From contig CAZKWM010000002.1 of NCBI GenBank assembly GCA_964556405.1, forward strand, positions 1-28,047: a stretch of DNA of 28,047 nucleotides, given 5' to 3'. Below the pieces are notes generated by a model that saw nothing but the letters and a program-made list of their open reading frames with translations, was not told the origin of the DNA and did not search any database. The stretch comes from an uncultured Methanotrichaceae archaeon (GTDB lineage Archaea > Halobacteriota > Methanosarcinia > Methanotrichales > Methanotrichaceae). Position 1 is the first letter of the stretch. Each line of letters opens with the position of its first letter. Position numbers and translations under genes: made by a program. Of this stretch, positions 231-17,991 are shown in pieces.

Positions 231-554
231 ATGCCGAAACATAAAGCAGCGATGGTGACGTATCTACTGATTTTCAGTATCACCGTCATGGCTTTCGGGG
301 AGTCCGAGAGCCCTGGGGGAAAGGTCGTAGAGGTCAAATCGCAGAAAGGGCTAGCATCGTTAGCGGGTGAACTTAATTGGAGTGACAATAATACAATTTA
401 TGTAATGGTTCCAACCTCATCACAGGAGAATTCTACTTCGCCTGCAAATGATGAGATAGACCTCGAGGAGGGCCTGGCTCTCCACGCTCAGTTACCTTTC
501 GCTAGGTGGTATAATAGCGTTTTGAATGTCAGGCCGCCCGTATCTCAAGCCTGA
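231..554 (+). CDS. Small secreted hypothetical protein
   Basis: 107 aa. Basic N-terminus plus hydrophobic stretch (MPKHKAAMVTYLLIFSITVMAFG) is signal-peptide-like, and TATAAATA lies upstream near 181-190. The 3' end overlaps the cas4 remnant, so the C-terminus may be truncated. Confidence 0.55.
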   Translation: MPKHKAAMVTYLLIFSITVMAFGESESPGGKVVEVKSQKGLASLAGELNWSDNNTIYVMVPTSSQENSTSPANDEIDLEEGLALHAQLPFARWYNSVLNVRPPVSQA

Positions 555-971
555 ACTAAGCTACCTGCGTTGATAGTGATGGCATAACGTTCGTTAGTGC
601 CGAAGAGGTAGAGATAGCCCATCCTCACAGGCTCGCCCAGATAATCTTCTAGGAGCATGCAGTAAGTTGCTAACTGGATCTCATCGTTGTCATAATAAGA
701 TGAGCCTCGCTTGCGCTCTATCGGTACCAAGGTGGGTCCAGTACTCTTACTATTTTTAGATTCAAGGATATCTACCTTTCCATGCAGACCAAGGTTTTCA
801 GATCGTAGATAAAACTCGTGTATCCAGCCGTCTCTTCTAGACTGGTTTTGGTGCCTAAGTAGTCCATCCTTGTGGTAGGCATTCATTTCTACTGTATCAA
901 AATAAGAACGATAGTAATATCTACGCGGGCAATAGAAATATTGATATCGATAGTAAAGGCCGGGCTTCCAA
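545..971 (-). pseudogene. cas4: Orphan Cas4 (RecB-like nuclease, type I-D-like), broken at both ends
   Basis: QYFYCPRRYYY (943-911) is in frame upstream of the ORF-track ATG. Motifs LGLHGKVDILE, PIERKRG and DEIQLATYCMLLE are present. The C-terminal CxxC...C cluster is absent, and the plausible TTG start (971, LEARPLLSIS) is out of frame. Confidence 0.85.
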
Positions 972-1082
972 AACAGGCTGTGGGGTTGAAAAAAGCCTCC
1001 AATACGGTAATCGCAAAGTTCGCTTAAATCAAGATTGAAGAGGACGCCGGCAAAGCCGCTCCTCTATACATCTTTCAGGCTT

Positions 1083-1466
1083 TTACCGCAGATCCATTTT
1101 GGTTTTGCCAAGGACGCTTATGTAAGTTACTTCCTTGCCCTGCTCCAGCTTTGCCTTCATCTCCTCGGTGATGGGTACATCGATGGTGCTGTAGTCGCCC
1201 ATATCCATGAGCTGGACTGAGTTGTCGCTTAAGGATAAGACCTGGCCCGACTTTCTTTCCACTACGGGGACGTAGACCTTGGAGGTGACGGGGGATACCA
1301 TGGATCTCTTCTGGTTATCGAATATGCCTATGCAGTCAACCCTGGCCTTGGCAGCGCCGTGCTTTCCGGGCTTGGAGTGGGATATGGCCTTGATGATGCA
1401 TGGTTCATCGTCAATGATAACGTATCTTCCTTCTTTGAGCTCTCTTACCTCTACCTGTTCCTTCAT
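1083..1466 (-). CDS. eif5a: Archaeal translation factor aIF5A
   Basis: Hypusine-site motif SKPGKHGAAKAR; 127 aa; typical two-domain sequence. Confidence 0.97.
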   Translation of the reverse strand: MKEQVEVRELKEGRYVIIDDEPCIIKAISHSKPGKHGAAKARVDCIGIFDNQKRSMVSPVTSKVYVPVVERKSGQVLSLSDNSVQLMDMGDYSTIDVPITEEMKAKLEQGKEVTYISVLGKTKMDLR

Positions 1467-1501
1467 CTCATCACTCCGAGCCCGGAATGCGCCTCTCCTA
1501 T

Positions 1502-2605
1502 TTAAAGAATGCCTCTCATCCGTCTCAAAGCTTCCTCTATTTTGTCTCGAGAGGCCGTGTAGGAGAGCCTGAAGTGCTCTTTTCCACCTGGGCCGAAGGC
1601 CGAGCCCGGAACAACTATTACTCCTGCATTGGCCAGGCTGCTTGCAGCTAAATCGCCGTTACCGGCCTTAGGAAACAGGTAGAACGCTCCCTGGGGAACC
1701 TTAAGATCCACACCCATTTCCTTAAAGCCCGTGGCTAGAATATCCCTTCTGACCTTGAACTCGTCTCTCATGGCCTTCACACAGTCTTGGGGGCCGGTCA
1801 GAGCGGCCAGGGCCGCTGCCTGGGAGATGGAGCTGGCACAGGCCTGGATGTACTGGTGGACCTTGAGGAGCTGATCTAAAGCATCGCCCTTGGCTCCGAG
1901 ATATCCGAGCCTCCATCCTGTCATGGAGTAGGTCTTGGAGACGGCGTTGATAGTTATCACGTCATCAGCAAACCTGGCGGGGCTCACGTGTTCTCCTTCG
2001 TAGAGGAAGTGCTCGTAGACCTCGTCCGAGATAACAGTCACGCCTCTGTCGCTGGCGATCTCGGCTATGGCCTTGACCTCCTCCTTCGTCTGCACGGCGC
2101 CAGTTGGGTTGGAGGGAGAGCAGATGACCATGGCCTTGGTCTTGGGGGTGATCCTCTCCTCCACCGCCTGGGGAGACATCCTGAGATCCTCGTTCAAGGG
2201 AATGCCTACGGGCTTTCCTCCCACCAGATGTGTCAGGGCTTTGTAAGCGAGAAAGCTCGGGTCGCCCATTAGAACTTCTTCTCCTTTATCCACCAAGGCT
2301 GATATGGCCAAAAATAGAGCTTCGCTGGCGCCGCTGGTGACCATGATCTCGGAAGGTAAGTAGTCGACGTCGTTTTCCCTTTTGAACTTCTCGCTGACCG
2401 CTTTCTGCAGATCCGGATAGCCGCAGTTAGGGGTATAGCCGGTCATCCCTTTTTCTATTGCCTTGATGGCAGCCTCCTTGATATGAGCGGGCGTGTCGAA
2501 GTCGGGCTGACCTATGCCCAAGTTGACGGCATCAGGGCCGGCTCCCTCAAAGGCTTTGCGTATGCTGGATATCTCTATCTCCTTGGTGCAGCTTGAGAAT
2601 CTCAT
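1502..2605 (-). CDS. PLP-dependent class I/II (aspartate-type) aminotransferase
   Basis: Motifs NLGIGQPDF, CSPSNPTG, SDEVY and PLP-lysine motif SKTYSMTGWRLGY; 367 aa. Confidence 0.95.
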   Translation of the reverse strand: MRFSSCTKEIEISSIRKAFEGAGPDAVNLGIGQPDFDTPAHIKEAAIKAIEKGMTGYTPNCGYPDLQKAVSEKFKRENDVDYLPSEIMVTSGASEALFLAISALVDKGEEVLMGDPSFLAYKALTHLVGGKPVGIPLNEDLRMSPQAVEERITPKTKAMVICSPSNPTGAVQTKEEVKAIAEIASDRGVTVISDEVYEHFLYEGEHVSPARFADDVITINAVSKTYSMTGWRLGYLGAKGDALDQLLKVHQYIQACASSISQAAALAALTGPQDCVKAMRDEFKVRRDILATGFKEMGVDLKVPQGAFYLFPKAGNGDLAASSLANAGVIVVPGSAFGPGGKEHFRLSYTASRDKIEEALRRMRGIL

Positions 2606-3129
2606 TTGGAATTACCTCGGCGCGGGCTTTCTGCTTTCTTGGTCTGCCCTTCTTTTACCTCCTCCTCTTTATAAACGGCGTTGGTAAAATGGAAGCACCC
2701 TAGCCTTTCCAGCTCCTGGCAGGTGACCTTCATACTGGACCTTCCTCCGACCCGGTGTAAGTCAATCCTGACATCCTCCTTCTTCAGGTCCTCGGTGATG
2801 GAATCGATGAACTTCTCCAGGGCCGTTGGGCTGGAGAAGGGGATCACGAAGATCGCATGGTAGAGGGAGCCCTTTTTGGTGTAAGAGGTCAGAATATAGC
2901 CCCTGCTCTCAAACTCGCTTATCTTCTCGAAGCTGCAGGCCACCTCCTTCTCGTGCTCCGCAGTGGAATCCAACCTCGAGATTATTATGAGTATCTTGGC
3001 GGCCAGGGACCTGTCCAGACTTTTGCAGAACCAGAGGTTTATAGCCCCCTGGCTCAAGGTCACCGAGGCCTCATCTCCCGTCATCTCCAGGGAGAGCAGC
3101 TCCTGCCTACATCTCTGGGCGTAGGGCAT
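2602..3129 (-). CDS. Hypothetical protein translationally coupled to the aminotransferase
   Basis: Long ORF with an ATGA-type 4-bp overlap with the aminotransferase. The start was moved from 3183 to the ATG at 3129 because 3183 overlaps the divergent paaI ATG and a TATA-like element lies about 25 nt upstream of 3129. Confidence 0.7.
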   Translation of the reverse strand: MPYAQRCRQELLSLEMTGDEASVTLSQGAINLWFCKSLDRSLAAKILIIISRLDSTAEHEKEVACSFEKISEFESRGYILTSYTKKGSLYHAIFVIPFSSPTALEKFIDSITEDLKKEDVRIDLHRVGGRSSMKVTCQELERLGCFHFTNAVYKEEEVKEGQTKKAESPRRGNSK

Positions 3130-3150
3130 CAATGGCTGATGAAGCGGAGT

Positions 3151-3160
3151 AGATATAACC
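3151..3160. promoter_or_regulatory. TATA-like element centred between divergent genes
   Basis: AGATATAACC (GGTTATATCT on the minus strand) lies about 22-25 nt from both the ATG at 3129 (-) and the ATG at 3182 (+). Confidence 0.4.
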
Positions 3161-3181
3161 ATTTCGAGGATACTCCCTGCC

Positions 3182-3589
3182 ATGGGAGAATCACTTGATA
3201 AGCTCTTTGAGGTTGAGCCCTATGCCAGGAAGCTAGGCATGAGGCTCCTGGAAGTAGGCCTGGGGATGGCCATGGTAGAGATGAGGATCACGAAGGACAT
3301 GAACAACATCTTCGGATCAGCCCATGGCGCAGCCATATATGCCCTTATGGACGTGGCCTTCGAGCTGGCTGCCAACTCCCATGGGACGGTCTCCGTCGCC
3401 CTGGATGTAAATGTAAACTATCTATATCCCGCCGTGGCCGGAGACCTTCTGATTGCCTCCGTCCGGGAGATGAGCAGATCCCCCAAGATCTCCACTTACT
3501 TCATTGAGGTCAAGAAGGAGGACGGAAGGCTCGTCGCGACAGCCCAGGCCATGGCCTACAACAAGAAGGACCCTCTGCCCTCCCAATGA
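3182..3589 (+). CDS. paaI: PaaI-family hotdog-fold thioesterase
   Basis: Motif NNIFGSAHGAAIYALMDVAFELAANS matches the PaaI N...G..HGG.I..L.D pattern; 135 aa. Confidence 0.88.
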   Translation: MGESLDKLFEVEPYARKLGMRLLEVGLGMAMVEMRITKDMNNIFGSAHGAAIYALMDVAFELAANSHGTVSVALDVNVNYLYPAVAGDLLIASVREMSRSPKISTYFIEVKKEDGRLVATAQAMAYNKKDPLPSQ

Positions 3590-3636
3590 GGAGAGGACTT
3601 ATAGCTGATACAAAATAACTCCTCCTCAGGTGGACA

Positions 3637-4866
3637 ATGAGGCTGAGGTCGTGCTTGAAGAGGTACAGGGGCGACACCCACAGGGCCCTCTCTCCCGAGG
3701 AGACCCTGGCGAAGGTGGAGCCCAAGATGCCCGCGGCAGGCATCACCAGGGTGGCGGATATAACCAACCTTGATAGAGTAGGAATTCCCGTCTTTTCATC
3801 CATAAGGCCCATGGCCGACAGGGGGGCCGTCTCTGTCTACAACGGCAAAGGGGCGTCTCCAGTGGAGGCCCGGGTCTCCGCCATGATGGAGGGGATAGAG
3901 AGGTACTCCTCCGAGGTGAGGGACAGGCATCTTACCGTTGCTAGGTACTCGGGCCTTTGCCAGAGCGAGAATGCCTTGGATCCTTCAGAGCTCATCCTCC
4001 CGGTAGGGGCCGACCCCAACTCCGATATTCCCTGGATCCTGGGCCAGGATATACTGAACGATGAGGAGATAATGGTGCCTGCCAACGCCGTCTTCCATCC
4101 CCTGACTGAGGACTATCGGAGGCTTTTTAGGACGAACACAAACGGCCTGGCCTCAGGAAATGAGATGGAGGAGGCGGTCTTCCACGGACTGGCTGAGGTG
4201 GTGGAGAGGGATGCCTGGGCCCTAGTAGAGGCCAAGCGGGACACAGGGCCCGTGATAAGGAACGTAACAGATAGCATCGCCCTTGGACTCCTGGATAAGT
4301 TTGCTACGGCTGATGTAGCAGTCCACTTGAAGGACATCACCAGCGACATAGGCATACCCACCTGCGCCGCTTCTTCAGATGATGTCAAGCTTAAAGACCC
4401 CATCCTCCTCACCAACGGCATGGGAACACACGTCAGCAGCAGGATCGCAGTCCTGAGAGCCTTGACTGAGGTAGCCCAGAGCCGTCTCACCCAGATCCAC
4501 GGGGCCAGGGAGGACACCGTCAGCGCCGAGATGAAGCGTCAGATAGGCTACGAGAGGATGAAGCGCATCAATAAGCACTGGTTTGATGAATCCAGGGAAG
4601 AGGACTTCTCAGCCCTGCCGAGCTTCGAGAGCGACGACTTCCTGGAGGACGTGAGGTACATCACCAGGAAACTGGAGGAGGCAGGCCTGGAGAGGGTCAT
4701 CGTTGTGAACCTGACCAGGAAGGAGATAGGCGTGCCCGTGGTCAGGGTGATAGTCCCAGGCCTGGAAATGTCTGCGGTGGACCCGGAGCGGGTTGGAAGG
4801 AGGCATCTCAATGCCAGGAAAGCCAAGGGCCGTCATCTTCTTGGGGCCAAGCCTGCAGCTAGATGA
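3637..4866 (+). CDS. ycaO: YcaO-family thioamide synthetase (methanogenesis marker protein 1)
   Basis: GITRVADITNLDRVGIPV, YNGKG, EGIERYS, TNTNGLASGN..EEA..HGL.EVVERDA and PVVRVIVPGLE; RBS-like AGGTGG upstream. Confidence 0.95.
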   Translation: MRLRSCLKRYRGDTHRALSPEETLAKVEPKMPAAGITRVADITNLDRVGIPVFSSIRPMADRGAVSVYNGKGASPVEARVSAMMEGIERYSSEVRDRHLTVARYSGLCQSENALDPSELILPVGADPNSDIPWILGQDILNDEEIMVPANAVFHPLTEDYRRLFRTNTNGLASGNEMEEAVFHGLAEVVERDAWALVEAKRDTGPVIRNVTDSIALGLLDKFATADVAVHLKDITSDIGIPTCAASSDDVKLKDPILLTNGMGTHVSSRIAVLRALTEVAQSRLTQIHGAREDTVSAEMKRQIGYERMKRINKHWFDESREEDFSALPSFESDDFLEDVRYITRKLEEAGLERVIVVNLTRKEIGVPVVRVIVPGLEMSAVDPERVGRRHLNARKAKGRHLLGAKPAAR

Positions 4867-5485
4867 GGCTGAAAAGATCCTGGGCCTTGGGGACGGGGCC
4901 GAGTTCAGGCCTCCTGCCAAGAGAGGCGACATCTTCAAAGCAGCCGAGGATGGAGCCGAGTTGATCTGCCTCATAGACGGGTTCTTCTTCCAGGACTGCT
5001 CCGTGGCCCACAAGGAGATTCTGTATGCCTTGGAGCATGGGGTAAAGGTAATTGGGGCCTCTAGCATGGGCGCTCTGAGGGCTTCGGAGATGGATGTCTA
5101 CGGCATGGAGGGCGCGGGGGAGATTTATCAGGCTTATAAAAATGGAGCGCTTGAGTCGGATGACGAGGTGGCATTAACCTTTGATCCCTACACCTTTACG
5201 CCTCAGTCCGAGCCCCTGGTGAACGTGAGGCATAGCCTTACGCTGGCAATAAAGCAGGGAGTTTTAAACCAGGAATCGGCAGAGGTCATACTGAGGGCGG
5301 CTCAATCCCTTTACTTCCCAGATAGGATCTACGACAGGATATTGAAGGCCGCCGGGACAAACGGGGTCTCCTCAGAGGCCATCGATGGGTTCAAATTGTT
5401 TCTAAAGTCTGGCGAAGGGGATCTTAAGGGTAAGGATGCCAGAAAGGCGCTAAAAAGGTCTCGGGAGATACTGGAGAATGGCTGA
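4811..5485 (+). CDS. tfuA: TfuA-like protein, YcaO partner
   Basis: VIFLGPSL, PPAKRGDI, IDGFFFQDCSVAHKEI, GASSMGALRASE and SDDEVA. Probable start is the ATG at 4811, which overlaps the ycaO 3' end by 56 nt. Confidence 0.93.
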   Translation: MPGKPRAVIFLGPSLQLDEAEKILGLGDGAEFRPPAKRGDIFKAAEDGAELICLIDGFFFQDCSVAHKEILYALEHGVKVIGASSMGALRASEMDVYGMEGAGEIYQAYKNGALESDDEVALTFDPYTFTPQSEPLVNVRHSLTLAIKQGVLNQESAEVILRAAQSLYFPDRIYDRILKAAGTNGVSSEAIDGFKLFLKSGEGDLKGKDARKALKRSREILENG

Positions 5486-5590
5486 AGTCCTGTATCCGAT
5501 TATGATATAGTCCTTTCGTACTTTTTCACACGGTAATTATTTCTAAGACTTTTCAAAGACATCTTTTGTTAGGGCATCAGTATGCTATCG

Positions 5591-5639
5591 ATAACTCTCT
5601 TAGTTATATCAAAAAAACTTATTACCAAGCCTGGTAATA
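5591..5639. promoter_or_regulatory. Promoter region of katE with two inverted repeats
   Basis: ATAACT-N5-AGTTAT (5591-5607) and TATTACCA-agcc-TGGTAATA (5620-5639) flank an A-run/CTTATTA BRE-TATA-like element. Confidence 0.4.
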
Positions 5640-6553
5640 TATCTTCTGAAGTTGTTGAGGTCAAACATACCGTAAAACCCATCCCTTAAGCCTTCTTGGC
5701 TCTGTTCAATCTTCCAATCAGATTTAGCAGTTTACATAACGAGTTTAGCTGTAATAGAGGTATCTGTAAATGAACGACCGCAATGAATCGAAGCCAGTAG
5801 ATAAGAACCGCAAGGACCAGCAGCTCGATTATTATACGGAGCACCCTGAGGAAACACAGCTTACCACCAATCAGGGCGTAAAGGTCAGCCGCACCGATGA
5901 TTCCCTCAAGGCCGGTCTAAGGGGCCCACCCCTCATGGAGAATTCTCATTTCAGGGAAACGATAACCCATTTCGACCATGAGAGAATTCCTGAGAGGGTG
6001 GTTCATGCCATGGGAACGGGTGCTTTTGGCTACTTCGAGTGCCTTAAAGCCCATGGGCGAATATACGGCAGCCAAGTTCCTTTAGGAGGTGGGAAAGAGG
6101 ACCCCAGTCTTTGTGCGGTTCTCCACGCCAGCTTCAGGGGATCGGCGGATACGGTTAGGGACGTGAGGGACTTTGCCACCAAGTTCTACACCGAGGAGCT
6201 CATATCTCCCAGGAAGATTGGAAGGCTGGTCCTGAACAAGACGCATGAAAACTTCTTCGCCGAGGTAGAACAGGTCGCCTTCTGTCCTGGAAACGTGGTG
6301 AAGGGCATAGACTTCACCAATGATCCCTTGCTTCAGGCCAGGCTCTTCTCCTACATAGACACCCAGATAGGCCGCCTTGGAGGCCCCAATTTCCACGAGA
6401 TACTCGTCAACAGGCCCATCGCCCCCGCCCACAACAACCAGAGGGACGCCATGCACAGGATGATGATCAACACCAGCAAGACCAGTTACTTCCCCAACTG
6501 CCTCGGCAGCAACTATCCGATGTCAACATCCTGGGATCAGGACGGCTACACCC

Positions 6554-6579
6554 ACTACATGGAGACACTACATGGAGAC
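6554..6579 (+). repeat. Perfect 13-bp tandem duplication ACTACATGGAGAC x2
   Basis: Read directly at 6554-6566 and 6567-6579; it frameshifts katE. Confidence 0.95.
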
Positions 6580-6733
6580 GGTGGAGGGAAGGAAGGTCCG
6601 GGAGAGGAGCGTAGAAGTTCAAGGATTTCTTCAGCCAGGCCAGCCTTTTCTTGAACAGCATGGCCGACTTCGAGAAGCTTCACATCATCAGAGCCTTCCG
6701 CTTCGAGGTAGGCAAGGTGGAGAGCAAGGAGGT

Positions 6734-6829
6734 CCGCCAGGTTTGCTGATGACGTGATAACTATCAACGCCGTCTCCAAGACCTACTCCATGACAGGATG
6801 GAGGCTCGGATATCTCGGAGCCAAGGGCG
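6734..6829 (+). repeat. Exact 96-bp inverted copy of 1885-1980 (aminotransferase segment) inside katE
   Basis: CCGCCAGGTTTGCTGATGACGTG...CTCGGAGCCAAGGGCG matches the reverse complement of 1885-1980 base for base. Confidence 0.95.
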
Positions 6830-7380
6830 TTGGTGCGGATCCGTCGACCCAGGGTGCCGATGCCAGCAAGTGCGGTAGATCTCCTGCCCTTAGATATGGC
6901 CAACACTCCTAAGAACACCCTCAAGAGCAGGATGATTGCCATTCTGGACGAGGATGGGTTCAATGGTACAGAGCTTACGAAGGTTACGATGGCTCTGGAG
7001 GATGTGGGTGGTCATGTCCAGGTTGTATCCACGCTTCTGGGAAGGATCAAAGGCGCCGACGGCCAGGAGTCAATGGTGGAAAAGAGCTCTCTTATCACTC
7101 CGTCCGTGGTCTTCGATGTCGTCTTCATCCCAGGTGGAAAGAAGAGCGTCGATGCTCTGAAGGCCAATGGGGATGCGATGCATTTCGTCAACGAGGCCTC
7201 AAGCACTGCAAGGCTATTGGAGCTGCCAGGGAGGGCATTGGTCTTCTGGAGGCTTCTGATATCAAGGGCTTGGTCTTTTCTGATCCTCAGGGAAAGGTAA
7301 AATCAGAGCTTGGTAGTAGTGACGGTTGGAACTGCTTCAGATGTTAATGCCTTCTTGGGAGCGTTTATCAAGGCGATAGC

Positions 7381-7673
7381 TCAGCATAGGTACTGGGGTA
7401 GGGAGAAGATGCTGCTGCCCCCTGATTGCCTTCCGATCTCTGTTTTCCAGTAGGCATTGTACCAGAACCTGTGCCCTTTCTCATTCTGCCTCTTGTCATG
7501 GGCGACCCATCCCCATCTTATAAGTGCCCTCAATGACTTGGCCAGCTTTCTTTCTGCTCTGACCCAATCTGTATAGGTTGAGATCTCCAATCCCATGGCT
7601 TGAGCTATCTCTTTCATGGATTTGGCTTCCGCTTGGCTATCAGGAAAAAAATTAAAAGAGATTCGTGATTCAT
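7381..7673 (-). pseudogene. Small winged-helix-like protein, probably frameshifted in an A7/T7 tract
   Basis: The ORF body (MKEIAQAMGL...LRALIRWGWV) is wHTH-like. An ATG at 7673 preceded by AGGTGA is 56 nt upstream; one extra base in the A7 run at 7645-7651 would join the frames. Confidence 0.55.
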
Positions 7674-8404: not shown

Positions 8405-9667
8405 ATGAGCTTTAGGGGTTTCCTGGAGGAGTTGAGATCTAAGGCCCTTTTAGAGGAGGTGCACAATGCCGCCTCTTCCAATTTAGAGGTAGCCCAGGTG
8501 TCCTGGAAGGCAAGGCCCATCCTTTTTCACGACGTAGATGGCCAAAAAAAGTGCTGCCTTAACATAATTGGCACCAGACACCTCCTGGCCATGGCTCTGG
8601 GGGTCGAGGCTACCAAACTGACCAGGTACCTGGCGGGCATCAGCTACCAGGGCCAGGTTGTAGAGGTGGAGTCATCGCCCGTCCAGGAGATAGAAGGGAT
8701 GCCAGATCTCTCAAGGCTTCCCATACTGACTTACTTCCAGGGCGACGGAGGGCCGTACATCACCGCGGGAGTGGTGACGACCAGCTACCAGGGCCACCTC
8801 AACGCCTGCGTTCACAGGCTCCTGGTCCTGGGAAAGGACAGGCTAGCGGCAAGGCTCGTGCCCGGCAGGCACACCCACCAGCTCTACCAGAAGGCCATGG
8901 AGGCGGGCGAGGAATTGCCCATAGCAATATCCATAGGCGTAGATCCTGCGATCCTCATAGCCGCCAGCACCAGGGTGCCTCCGGAGATGGAGTACCAGTA
9001 CGCAAGCGCCCTCAGAGGAGGTCCTGTGGAGGTCGTGCGTCTAGAGAACGACGTTCCAGTGCCACACGCGGAAGTCGTCCTGGAGGGGTACATCACCACC
9101 GAGAGATCTGATGAAGGCCCCTTCGTGGACATCACCGGCACCCGGGACCTGGTGAGAAAGGAGCCCGTCATCCGCCTGACCAAGATGATGACCAGAGAGG
9201 ACCCCATCTACCACGGCATAATGCCAGCGGGCGGAGAGCACAAGATGCTCATGGGAGTGCCCTACGAGCCCCTCATCTTCAGGGAGGCCTCCAAGGTAGC
9301 CAGGATCAAAGACGTCATATTAACTGATGGGGGGTGCAATTACTTCCATGCCGTGGTGCAGATAGAGAAAAAGTCCGAGGATGAGCCGAGAAAGGTCATA
9401 GAGGCTGCCATTAAAGCCCACGGATCTTTGAAGCACGTGCTGGTAGTGGATGAGGACATCGACATCTACGATCCCAGGGACCTGGAGTACGCAGTTGCCA
9501 CCAGGGTTAGAGCTGATGAAGATGCCATACTGTACCCCGGAGTCCGGGGTAGCACTCTTGATCCAAGGAGCGTTAACGGCATTACCACAAAGGTGGGATT
9601 GGACGCCACAGCCAAGCTCGACAAGCTCTGGAAGTTCCAGAGGGTGATGCCCGGAGGTAGGCCTTAA
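8405..9667 (+). CDS. ubiD: UbiD-family prFMN-dependent decarboxylase (likely the archaeal mevalonate-pathway anhydromevalonate-phosphate decarboxylase)
   Basis: DGGPYITAG, EGPFVDITG, HLKHV-like GSLKHVLVVDEDIDI and GSTLDP...TTKVGLDAT; about 420 aa from ATG 8405. The pathway assignment is inferred from knowledge of Methanosarcinales UbiD homologues. Confidence 0.88.
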   Translation: MSFRGFLEELRSKALLEEVHNAASSNLEVAQVSWKARPILFHDVDGQKKCCLNIIGTRHLLAMALGVEATKLTRYLAGISYQGQVVEVESSPVQEIEGMPDLSRLPILTYFQGDGGPYITAGVVTTSYQGHLNACVHRLLVLGKDRLAARLVPGRHTHQLYQKAMEAGEELPIAISIGVDPAILIAASTRVPPEMEYQYASALRGGPVEVVRLENDVPVPHAEVVLEGYITTERSDEGPFVDITGTRDLVRKEPVIRLTKMMTREDPIYHGIMPAGGEHKMLMGVPYEPLIFREASKVARIKDVILTDGGCNYFHAVVQIEKKSEDEPRKVIEAAIKAHGSLKHVLVVDEDIDIYDPRDLEYAVATRVRADEDAILYPGVRGSTLDPRSVNGITTKVGLDATAKLDKLWKFQRVMPGGRP

Positions 9668-12110: not shown

Positions 12111-12259
12111 ATCCTCTGGCGCTGAATGGGCGAAACAATAAACGCCAATTATAAAGGTACAATCGCGCCAAGAAGCTCCCTTAATATCGGTGATTGATCA
12201 ATTCATCCCATGGAATCCATTTATGCTTTTGTGACTCTGTGGTTTTCCTTTGTATTCCA

Positions 12260-12281
12260 ATATATATATATATATATATAT
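12260..12281. repeat. (AT)11 microsatellite
   Basis: Perfect alternating A/T run, read directly. Confidence 0.95.
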
Positions 12282-12291
12282 TCTTGAACTC

Positions 12292-14488: not shown

Positions 14489-15199
14489 TTGAACCTTGAA
14501 GAAATATCTGACGCCTTAAAGACGTCCCTTCATCTCAGGGATAGCCCTGTGGGCGTAGCTCTGTTCAAGCGCGAGGAAGATATACCCAAAGATATTGGGA
14601 TCGCTGAGAGGCCTTTTAACTACTGCCAGATGATACAGGAGGCGAGGATCAAGGGCGAGAGCTTCCTGGCCCACGCCGACTACCACAAGTGTAAGGGCGG
14701 GGCCTCTGGCCTGGGCCTCCTGGAGTGCCCTGAGAACATATCCTCGGGCAACCTATACTTCGAGAAGCTTCACAAGTGCGCGACCAGGGAGGCCGGCGCT
14801 CGGATCGCAGGCAACATGCCCAGGATTCAGGCAGGGTCCACCGTAGCCACCTATGTGGCTCCCTTGAACAAGATGGTGAAAAATCCCGATGTAGTAATAA
14901 TAGTTGGGACGCCCCTCACCGCTAGGAGGGTCGTACAGGCCGAGATGTACACCCGCGGCGGCAGGGCGAACATAAGTACTGCAGGCATCCAGTCCTTCTG
15001 CGTTGACGCTACAGCCGTTCCTTACATCAAAGGCGAGGTCAATGTGTCCATGGGCTGCGATGGATCTGCCAGGAACGCCGATCTGGAGGGCGAGAGCGTT
15101 GTAATCGGCATTCCCTTCGGCATTCTCCAGGAGATCACCCCTATTCTCAAGGAACATTACGAGGGCTGGGACGCCTTCATGAGGACCAAGCCCACCTAA
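14489..15199 (+). CDS. DUF169-family protein
   Basis: LRDSPVGV, YCQMIQEAR, CKGGASGLGL, PDVVIIVGTP, QSFCVDATAVP and SMGCDGSAR. Probable TTG start at 14489 within the longer ORF 14168-15199. Confidence 0.82.
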   Translation: MNLEEISDALKTSLHLRDSPVGVALFKREEDIPKDIGIAERPFNYCQMIQEARIKGESFLAHADYHKCKGGASGLGLLECPENISSGNLYFEKLHKCATREAGARIAGNMPRIQAGSTVATYVAPLNKMVKNPDVVIIVGTPLTARRVVQAEMYTRGGRANISTAGIQSFCVDATAVPYIKGEVNVSMGCDGSARNADLEGESVVIGIPFGILQEITPILKEHYEGWDAFMRTKPT

Positions 15200-15299: not shown

Positions 15300-15767
15300 G
15301 TGTTCGATAGGATTTTAGTGGCCACAGATGGCTCTGAGCACAGCGAGGGAGCAGCCAAGTTTGCTGTAGATCTAGCCAGGCTCCCCACAGGAAAAGTTAC
15401 GGCTCTCTACGTTGCCGATACTGCCAAGTACTTCACCTCCGCAGGAGAGGTAACTTTCAATATAGCCGATGAGATCATAGGCCGCGTCAGAAGCGCGACC
15501 CTGGAAGAAGGCGATAAGGCCACACGTCGAGTAGAAGAGATTGGTAAGGCCGCTGGGGTGGAGGTGGAGAGAAAGGTGGTAGAAGGAAACCCCGCCAAGG
15601 AGATCCTTAAAGCTGCGGAGGATATGCACGCAGAGGTCATAGCCATTGGAAGCATAGGCCGCACGGGTATAGAGGAGTTTCTCCTGGGAAGCGTGGCCGA
15701 GAAGGTGGTCAGGAACTCCAAGGTACCTGTCCTGGTGGTGCGCAAGGACGGGTCTCAAGGATCTTAA
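15300..15767 (+). CDS. uspA: Universal stress protein
   Basis: ILVATDGSEHS...IAIGSIGRTGIEEFLLGSVAEKVVRNSKVPVLVV; GGAGG RBS and TATAAA upstream. Confidence 0.95.
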   Translation: MFDRILVATDGSEHSEGAAKFAVDLARLPTGKVTALYVADTAKYFTSAGEVTFNIADEIIGRVRSATLEEGDKATRRVEEIGKAAGVEVERKVVEGNPAKEILKAAEDMHAEVIAIGSIGRTGIEEFLLGSVAEKVVRNSKVPVLVVRKDGSQGS

Positions 15768-17553: not shown

Positions 17554-17991
17554 ATGTTCGAGAAGATCATGGTGGCAACGGACGGATCAGAGCACAGCGA
17601 GAGGGCAGCAAAGATAGGGATTGAGATCGCCAAGCTTTCAGGTGGCACCGTGACCGCGATCTATGTGGCCGATGTGAGAAGGAATAGCCACCTACCCGAT
17701 GCTTTGCTCTTAGTGAGCATCAGAGAGCTTCTGATCAAGGAGGGCAAGGAAGCTGTAAGTGTCGTTGAGAAGGCCGCCAAAGAGGCAGGGGTTCCTGTGA
17801 AGAAAGCCGTGCTGGAGGGAAATCCAGGAGAGGAGATCGCCGGTTTTGCAGTCAAGAACGACGTGAGCCTCATTGTCATGGGCAGCGTGGGCAGGACTGG
17901 GCTAGACAAGTTCCTCCTAGGATCCGTGGCTGAGAAGGTGGTCAGAAACTCCAAGGTGCCGGTCCTCACTGTGCCCAGGGAGGCAACTTGA
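17554..17991 (+). CDS. uspA: Universal stress protein (paralogue of 15300-15767)
   Basis: IMVATDGSEHS...GSVGRTGLDKFLLGSVAEKVVRNSKVPVL. Confidence 0.95.
   Translation: MFEKIMVATDGSEHSERAAKIGIEIAKLSGGTVTAIYVADVRRNSHLPDALLLVSIRELLIKEGKEAVSVVEKAAKEAGVPVKKAVLEGNPGEEIAGFAVKNDVSLIVMGSVGRTGLDKFLLGSVAEKVVRNSKVPVLTVPREAT

Follow-up and report, generated by a model that had tools for sequence, protein, structure and literature searches.

How did a piece of one gene come to be written, exactly and in the opposite direction, into another gene almost 5 kb away? This is the question raised by a decayed catalase gene (katE) of an uncultured Methanotrichaceae archaeon, in which a stretch of 96 nt matches the opposite strand of an intact aminotransferase gene. 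The window analysed here is the whole stretch of 28,047 nt in which both genes lie. The answer reached is that katE, itself no longer functional, very probably carries an inherited, microhomology-primed templated insertion that was made by two template switches.

The patch, its donor gene and the direction of copying

The patch occupies positions 6734-6829 of the plus strand and is the perfect reverse complement of 1885-1980, with 96 of 96 nt identical and with the identity breaking off exactly at both ends, just as the first-pass annotation had described it. The pair is the only long inverted repeat that a repeat search returned in the window, and in an exhaustive search the next-longest maximal exact match was at most 24 nt, this being an (AT)n run. 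When the window was block-shuffled 20 times the longest exact repeats reached only 14-20 nt, therefore the 96-nt repeat is real and far above what chance provides. An 18-nt direct match between katE at 6667 and position 14757 falls inside the range of the shuffles. When read in the sense direction of the aminotransferase the patch encodes ...ARFADDVITINAVSKTYSMTGWRLGYLGAKG; there is no sign that it has a function where it now lies, within a gene that is broken many times over.

The donor is the minus-strand gene at 1502-2605, which encodes a class I/II aminotransferase of 367 aa that matches nearly the whole of the Pfam profile Aminotran_1_2 (PF00155, profile positions 2-360 of 361). Members of the 90% cluster to which its protein belongs are labelled 'aspartate aminotransferase' in public sources. 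The donor segment itself (1885-1980, minus strand) contains SK...GxR, which we take to be the PLP-binding lysine motif of the fold-type I aminotransferases. It is apparent from the full-length reading frame that the donor gene was kept intact and unchanged after it had been copied.

The direction of copying can be read from related genomes. Among species-representative genomes the nearest by YcaO is Methanosaeta sp. UBA114, also of the Methanotrichaceae, at 94% amino-acid identity. Positions 940-5607 of the window (4.67 kb) have about 93% nucleotide identity both to UBA114 and to a second sister lineage (L083-L088), and this shared block holds eIF5A, the aminotransferase, a 193-aa ORF, a thioesterase, YcaO and TfuA. 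Its breakpoints are sharp and fall at the same places in both sister lineages (L003 and L083-L088 were compared). Outside the block nothing is related to the flanking sequences of the sisters, neither the Cas4-like ORF to its left nor, to its right, the katE pseudogene and all that follows. The lineage of the window has therefore rearranged, or gained, DNA on both sides. A katE gene beside TfuA is absent in UBA114 and in L083-L088, with which nothing but the block is shared. The ORF on the left (545-886, minus strand, 113 aa), which is placed just outside the block, gives a weak match to a Cas4/DUF83 nuclease domain (E = 5e-6); a CRISPR array is not apparent anywhere in the window.

Within the unbroken block the 96-nt segment is found at its usual place in the aminotransferase orthologues of the sister lineages (87-90% identity), and more distant relatives have it too (78-83%). 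Catalase homologues, by contrast, lack the segment, so that it must have passed from the aminotransferase (the donor) into katE (the recipient). Furthermore, the patch matches its own donor at every position and differs from the sister orthologues to the extent just given, thus it was copied in this lineage after the split from its sisters.

A number of other features are found further along the window. A perfect (AT)n microsatellite of about 24 nt is present at 12259-12282, within a stretch of lower GC (0.44-0.51 over 12-14 kb) that has short ORFs only. A direct repeat of 112 nt with 76% identity (15637-15748 and 17870-17981) falls within the ORFs at 15300-15767 and 17554-17991, which are probably paralogues, and the counterpart of the first of these ORFs on another contig (L001, see below) matches the universal stress protein (Usp) family. 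Between 19962 and 23849 on the minus strand three adjoining ORFs encode a molybdopterin oxidoreductase (673 aa), a 4Fe-4S dicluster protein and an FAD/NAD-binding protein, the last of which carries a dihydroorotate dehydrogenase B-type Fe-S domain; this set may be a formate dehydrogenase-like module.

The decayed catalase gene and the two junctions

The recipient extends from about 5770 to 7453 on the plus strand and derives from a gene for an HPII-type large-subunit catalase with a DJ-1/PfpI-like C-terminal domain (PF00199, PF01965). Its best PDB matches are HPII/KatE-type catalases of the E. coli type (E = 6e-80), and both the catalase core and the DJ-1/PfpI-like domain can still be recognised, yet they do not lie in one open frame. 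With the frame broken at least 6 times and about 165 codons deleted, katE is a pseudogene, in which at least 8 lesions are present besides the patch. Two mutually compensating frameshifts lie near 6050-6130, and these are followed by the internal deletion (6193-6201), where FATKFYTEE is joined directly to LISPRK and HPII residues of about 196-360 are missing. The residues EE(L) are common to both sides of this junction, which suggests a microhomology-type deletion. At 6553-6578 a 13-nt tandem duplication, in which CACTACATGGAGA occurs twice and is followed by a C at 6579, shifts the frame of katE and makes HYMET appear in two frames, and further frameshifts are found near 6615, 6885, 7195 and 7290. 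The tandem duplication and the overlap deletion read as further slippage or microhomology-type lesions and fit the neutral record of an error-prone process. The active-site motif at window positions 5990-6010 reads RIPERVVHAMG, compared with RIPERIVHARG in HPII; the active-site histidine is retained, and the residue two after it is Met where HPII has Arg, a change that fits decay after function had been lost.

No katE allele free of the patch was found in metagenome scans, at the sister loci or in a search of catalase homologues, and when a close intact katE was sought as a source of the ancestral DNA the best homologues were only 51-55% identical, the ancestral nucleotides of katE at the two junctions being those implied by protein conservation among such homologues. 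An allele of this kind would serve to confirm a templated insertion and is no part of its definition. The left flank of katE and the core of the patch gave no match in two exact-pattern scans of a collection of metagenome contigs, so the species of the window is absent from that collection.

The patch meets katE at each end through a short sequence that fits both genes. At the left junction the overlap is CCGCCAG (7 nt, 6734-6740, plus strand). The catalase frame 5' of the patch reads ...FEVGKVESKEVRQ, and the last 7 nt of this are the first 7 nt of the patch, with the overlap completing the (V)RQ codons as (GT)C CGC CAG, such that GTC CGC CAG finishes at 6740. At the right junction the overlap is GCCAAGGGCG (10 nt, 6820-6829, plus strand), which is again common to donor and katE and is read as GCC AAG GGC G, giving AKG(V) of the catalase, and the same catalase frame then runs on as VGADPSTQGADASK. 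Past this overlap the donor and katE have an imperfect similarity, amounting to 17 of 22 nt when counted from the start of the overlap, and this may have aided the annealing on return.

What has been lost between the two overlaps can be judged from an alignment with seven catalase homologues, the consensus of which is FEVGKVESKEVRQ-RMVxLFNxVDxxLAxxI-AKGIGV, with EVRQ and AKG[VI]G conserved in the seven at a distance of 17 residues. These 17 residues, or about 51 nt, are missing from the katE of the window, therefore the stretch was replaced and not displaced. In its place are the 79 donor-only nt of the patch (6741-6819, plus strand), so that katE has become 28 nt longer on balance and its frame is shifted. 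Had the patch been inserted bluntly, the donor would need to match five conserved catalase residues in frame, for which the chance is estimated at 1e-6 to 1e-7; true overlaps of 7 and 10 nt are by far the simpler reading of the sequence. Two earlier claims, that the left 7 bp and the right 10 bp also fit the catalase and that the catalase stretch was replaced rather than displaced, are thus borne out, the first by conserved residues in the correct frames and the second by comparison with the homologues.

How the patch may have been copied

An exact copy, a donor that has been retained, overlaps at both junctions, an established direction of copying and an absence of the hallmarks of transposition are together the features of a templated insertion. 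In the sequence of steps that is proposed, the plus-sense 3' end of katE, ending in ...CCGCCAG, would leave its own template and anneal, 4.75 kb upstream, to the complementary CTGGCGG of the aminotransferase gene (plus strand, 1974-1980), where it would be extended by 89 nt, down to 1885. The extended end would then dissociate and its new end, GCCAAGGGCG, would re-anneal to katE about 51 nt past the point of departure, with the outcome that 51 nt of katE would be swapped for 79 nt of aminotransferase sequence. The first candidate for such a process belongs to the repair of a break or gap, in which a long 3' tail left by resection, or a nascent strand that had been displaced, would snap back. 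A second candidate is that a nascent leading strand would switch to the lagging-strand template behind a stalled fork. The order of the two switches, a break as opposed to a fork as their start, and the polymerase involved are all parts of this reconstruction that we infer from the finished product.

The position of the donor does favour a mechanism in cis, as donor and priming end share a strand, the donor is to the 5' side, and its orientation is inverted. The plus strand of the window has CTGGCGG at just two places, 1974 and 8630, and of these complementary 7-mers only that of the donor lies 5' of the katE site. Sites on the opposite strand are nearer, such as that at 8961, about 2.2 kb away, and would have given a direct copy; they were not used. 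Cumulative GC skew climbs from the left end of the window to the right, a trend that fits, though weakly, a fork moving in that direction. The double template switch to a locus about 4.8 kb away that was proposed in the first-pass annotation is supported by the intact donor, the exactness of the copy, the overlaps at its ends and the loss of katE sequence between them; MMBIR and a polymerase-theta-like route, which that annotation named, are no more than candidate pathways.

The alternative that survives best is that neither a snap-back nor a fork switch took place, and that a free fragment of aminotransferase DNA, or an mRNA or cDNA template, was captured by microhomology-mediated end joining at a double-strand break in katE. 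Fragment capture and RNA-templated patches are both known in yeast and human cells, and the product of such a capture would look identical to the patch. In the case of RNA, the patch lies in the sense direction relative to katE, so that the aminotransferase mRNA could be primed by the 3' end of the minus strand (...CGCCCTTGGC). A preprint reports that a bacterial group II intron-like reverse transcriptase is active in microhomology-mediated end joining (bioRxiv 10.1101/2022.03.14.484287). Against capture of either kind, however, is the fact that the donor lies on the same strand as katE and so near to it; donors taken from anywhere in a genome, here assumed to be about 2-3 Mb, would be as near in only about 0.4-0.8% of cases. 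In addition, no reverse transcriptase was detected in the larger ORFs of the window. Capture of a fragment or of an RNA is thus rather improbable.

It might also be argued that the patch is not present in cells at all, but is a chimera produced by assembly or by amplification (MDA or PCR). MDA chimeras are reportedly inverted in the typical case, drawn from nearby sequence and joined through short overlaps, a form that the patch resembles, and an artefact would also give exact identity. What decides against a chimera is the presence of the patch elsewhere. A katE fragment of 294 aa, the same in every residue, is also encoded by two other public contigs, k141_1812921 of ENA ERZ27250145 (24.7 kb, here L001) and Ga0455670_0054913 of JGI 3300041809 (11.3 kb, here L002), both of which carry the patch at the same position, and the second of which also includes the donor, identical to its patch. 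L002 differs from the window at 6 positions in 9.4 kb, and L001 differs at 8 positions and by a 4-nt indel, to which a cluster of 20 SNPs near its contig end must be added, such that the three assemblies are nearly clonal, with about 0.06% divergence outside this one cluster. As the same patch is found at the same site in three assemblies that differ in SNPs and come from different samples and pipelines, a chimera of any single assembly or single amplification is excluded. On one further JGI contig (20.4 kb; 20,400 nt) ORFs start or stop at the patch, a pattern for which there is also a matching 'gem' source entry, and the same patch is present in L091 among the methanogen loci that were compared. 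Look-ups of neighbouring ORFs for more contigs with the patch returned one short Logan contig, which ends before the patch is reached. In addition, two switches with a return to the same gene 51 nt further on are unlike the usual artefact, which has a single junction. The amplification chimera that had been put forward as an alternative in the first-pass annotation is refuted by the SNP-distinct assemblies from other samples.

Two further observations concern the ends of contigs in this material. The SNP cluster of L001 (97-343, corresponding to 3871-4117 of the window) comprises 20 SNPs, all less than about 350 nt from the contig end, of which 19 have the allele found in the sister lineage L084. 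Either strains were mixed here when the end of the contig was assembled, or ycaO contains a short tract of recombination. The ends of another contig, L038 (1-88 and 10008-10095), form an exact inverted repeat of 88 nt, which is the pattern expected of an assembly artefact, in contrast to the katE patch that is internal and reproduced.

The near-clonal assemblies prove that the patch is heritable, not that it is of great age, and the copying event predates the common ancestor of the populations that were sampled. An upper limit to its age comes from the patch itself: with no mismatch in 96 nt, pairwise divergence is at most about 3% (95% upper bound), compared with a divergence of about 7% between the block and UBA114, from which it would follow that the event is younger than about 40% of the time since the split from UBA114. 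It had been suggested that perfect identity implies either a very recent event or a chimera; the observation of perfect identity holds and the chimera does not, and a very recent event is not required, as any age within this bound is compatible with the data.

The possibility that the patch is a mobile element (a MITE or transposon remnant), one of the repeats of a diversity-generating retroelement or the result of homology-driven ectopic gene conversion is negligible, for although two copies of about 100 nt a few kb apart are what such processes could leave, there are just two copies, of which one is a coding segment that is both ancestral and conserved, no terminal inverted repeats or target-site duplication are present at the patch and no transposase was detected in the larger ORFs of the window, a diversity-generating retroelement is rejected on window ORFs in which no reverse transcriptase was detected and on repeats that are inverted and 100% identical with no adenine-specific mismatches, and gene conversion is rejected on flanks without homology past the 7- and 10-nt overlaps and on a replaced catalase stretch that is unrelated to the patch.

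Known classes of templated insertion and the meaning of the patch

An inherited templated insertion made by two template switches, as favoured here for katE, falls within a mutation class already known, the microhomology-mediated templated insertion, and resembles several kinds of event from other organisms, each of which also differs from it. One likeness is to the templated insertions attributed to FoSTeS/MMBIR (Hastings, Lupski; for an approach to their detection see PMC8421209), in which a segment is copied and not moved, and comes from the same genome. As in katE, there are overlaps at both junctions, two switches and a small loss of the target, and an inverted orientation is possible. 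Such events have been described in eukaryotes and E. coli, whereas the patch is archaeal and comes without evidence of a broken fork.

Inverted copies in bacteria are known from quasipalindrome mutations, studied by Ripley and by Lovett, which are driven by imperfect inverted repeats that lie tens of bases apart and are corrected towards perfect palindromes. There too the copy is inverted, and arises when synthesis switches template within a strand or across the fork and then switches back, but katE had no inverted repeat before the event and the distance is about 100 times larger. Long insertions at breaks, such as those of yeast dna2 mutants and the templated-sequence insertion polymorphisms of humans, have donors that are found genome-wide, often at fragile or highly transcribed sites. 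These insertions share with the katE patch segments of about 100 nt and up, distant loci and microhomology at the junctions, and they differ in that the donor of the patch is close and in cis.

A further likeness is found in Pol-theta end joining and in the fold-back inverted insertions of yeast, in which a 3' end primes on a short complement, often on its own strand (PMC11724301). Here also extension is followed by release and by joining via a second overlap. These insertions are mostly of 5-34 nt and come from tens to hundreds of bases away, in contrast to the 79-96 nt brought from 4.75 kb in katE. Archaea, to our knowledge, do not possess Pol theta and have only a relative of the Hel308 helicase type. 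It is conceivable, if unlikely, that the patch records an alternative end-joining or gap-repair route that has so far gone unrecorded in archaea, in which a 3' end would prime on a microhomology, either kilobases off in its own resected strand or in RNA, be extended by about 90 nt and then be rejoined. Such a route would be a functional counterpart of Pol-theta repair, with archaeal enzymes such as Hel308 together with PolB, PolD or PrimPol doing the work. If true, such a route could be mined systematically from the pseudogenes of methanogens.

Within the archaea, we know of no reported outcomes of microhomology-mediated end joining other than deletions. The archaeal form of this repair is like the event in katE to the extent that short overlaps join the ends and some sequence is lost (PMC8708640). 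The same review of archaeal break repair does not use the word 'templated' and treats microhomology-mediated end joining briefly, and a complete Ku-dependent end-joining set is described only for Methanocella paludicola (PMC8708640). Full-text literature searches on templated insertion, template switching and microhomology in archaea or methanogens found no such event, in agreement with the earlier expectation that these are poorly documented in methanogens. The class of mutation is therefore one that is already known, and it is apparently unreported for methanogens.

It does appear that patches of this kind are rare. When 1.33 Mb of methanogen loci were searched for other isolated inverted copies that are exact over at least 25 nt, none was found apart from the same patch in L002 and L091 and the contig ends of L038.

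As a single neutral event the patch alters no current view. The value of scars in pseudogenes is that they record which error-prone routes of repair and replication are in use without having been filtered by selection, and this is of particular interest in Methanothrix-type methanogens, which grow slowly, are hard to manipulate genetically and for which very little is known of how breaks are repaired. The patch in katE is a clean, inherited example of unusual reach and length. It indicates that copying primed by microhomology takes place in this lineage, and it supplies a well-defined pattern with which a genome-wide survey could be made.
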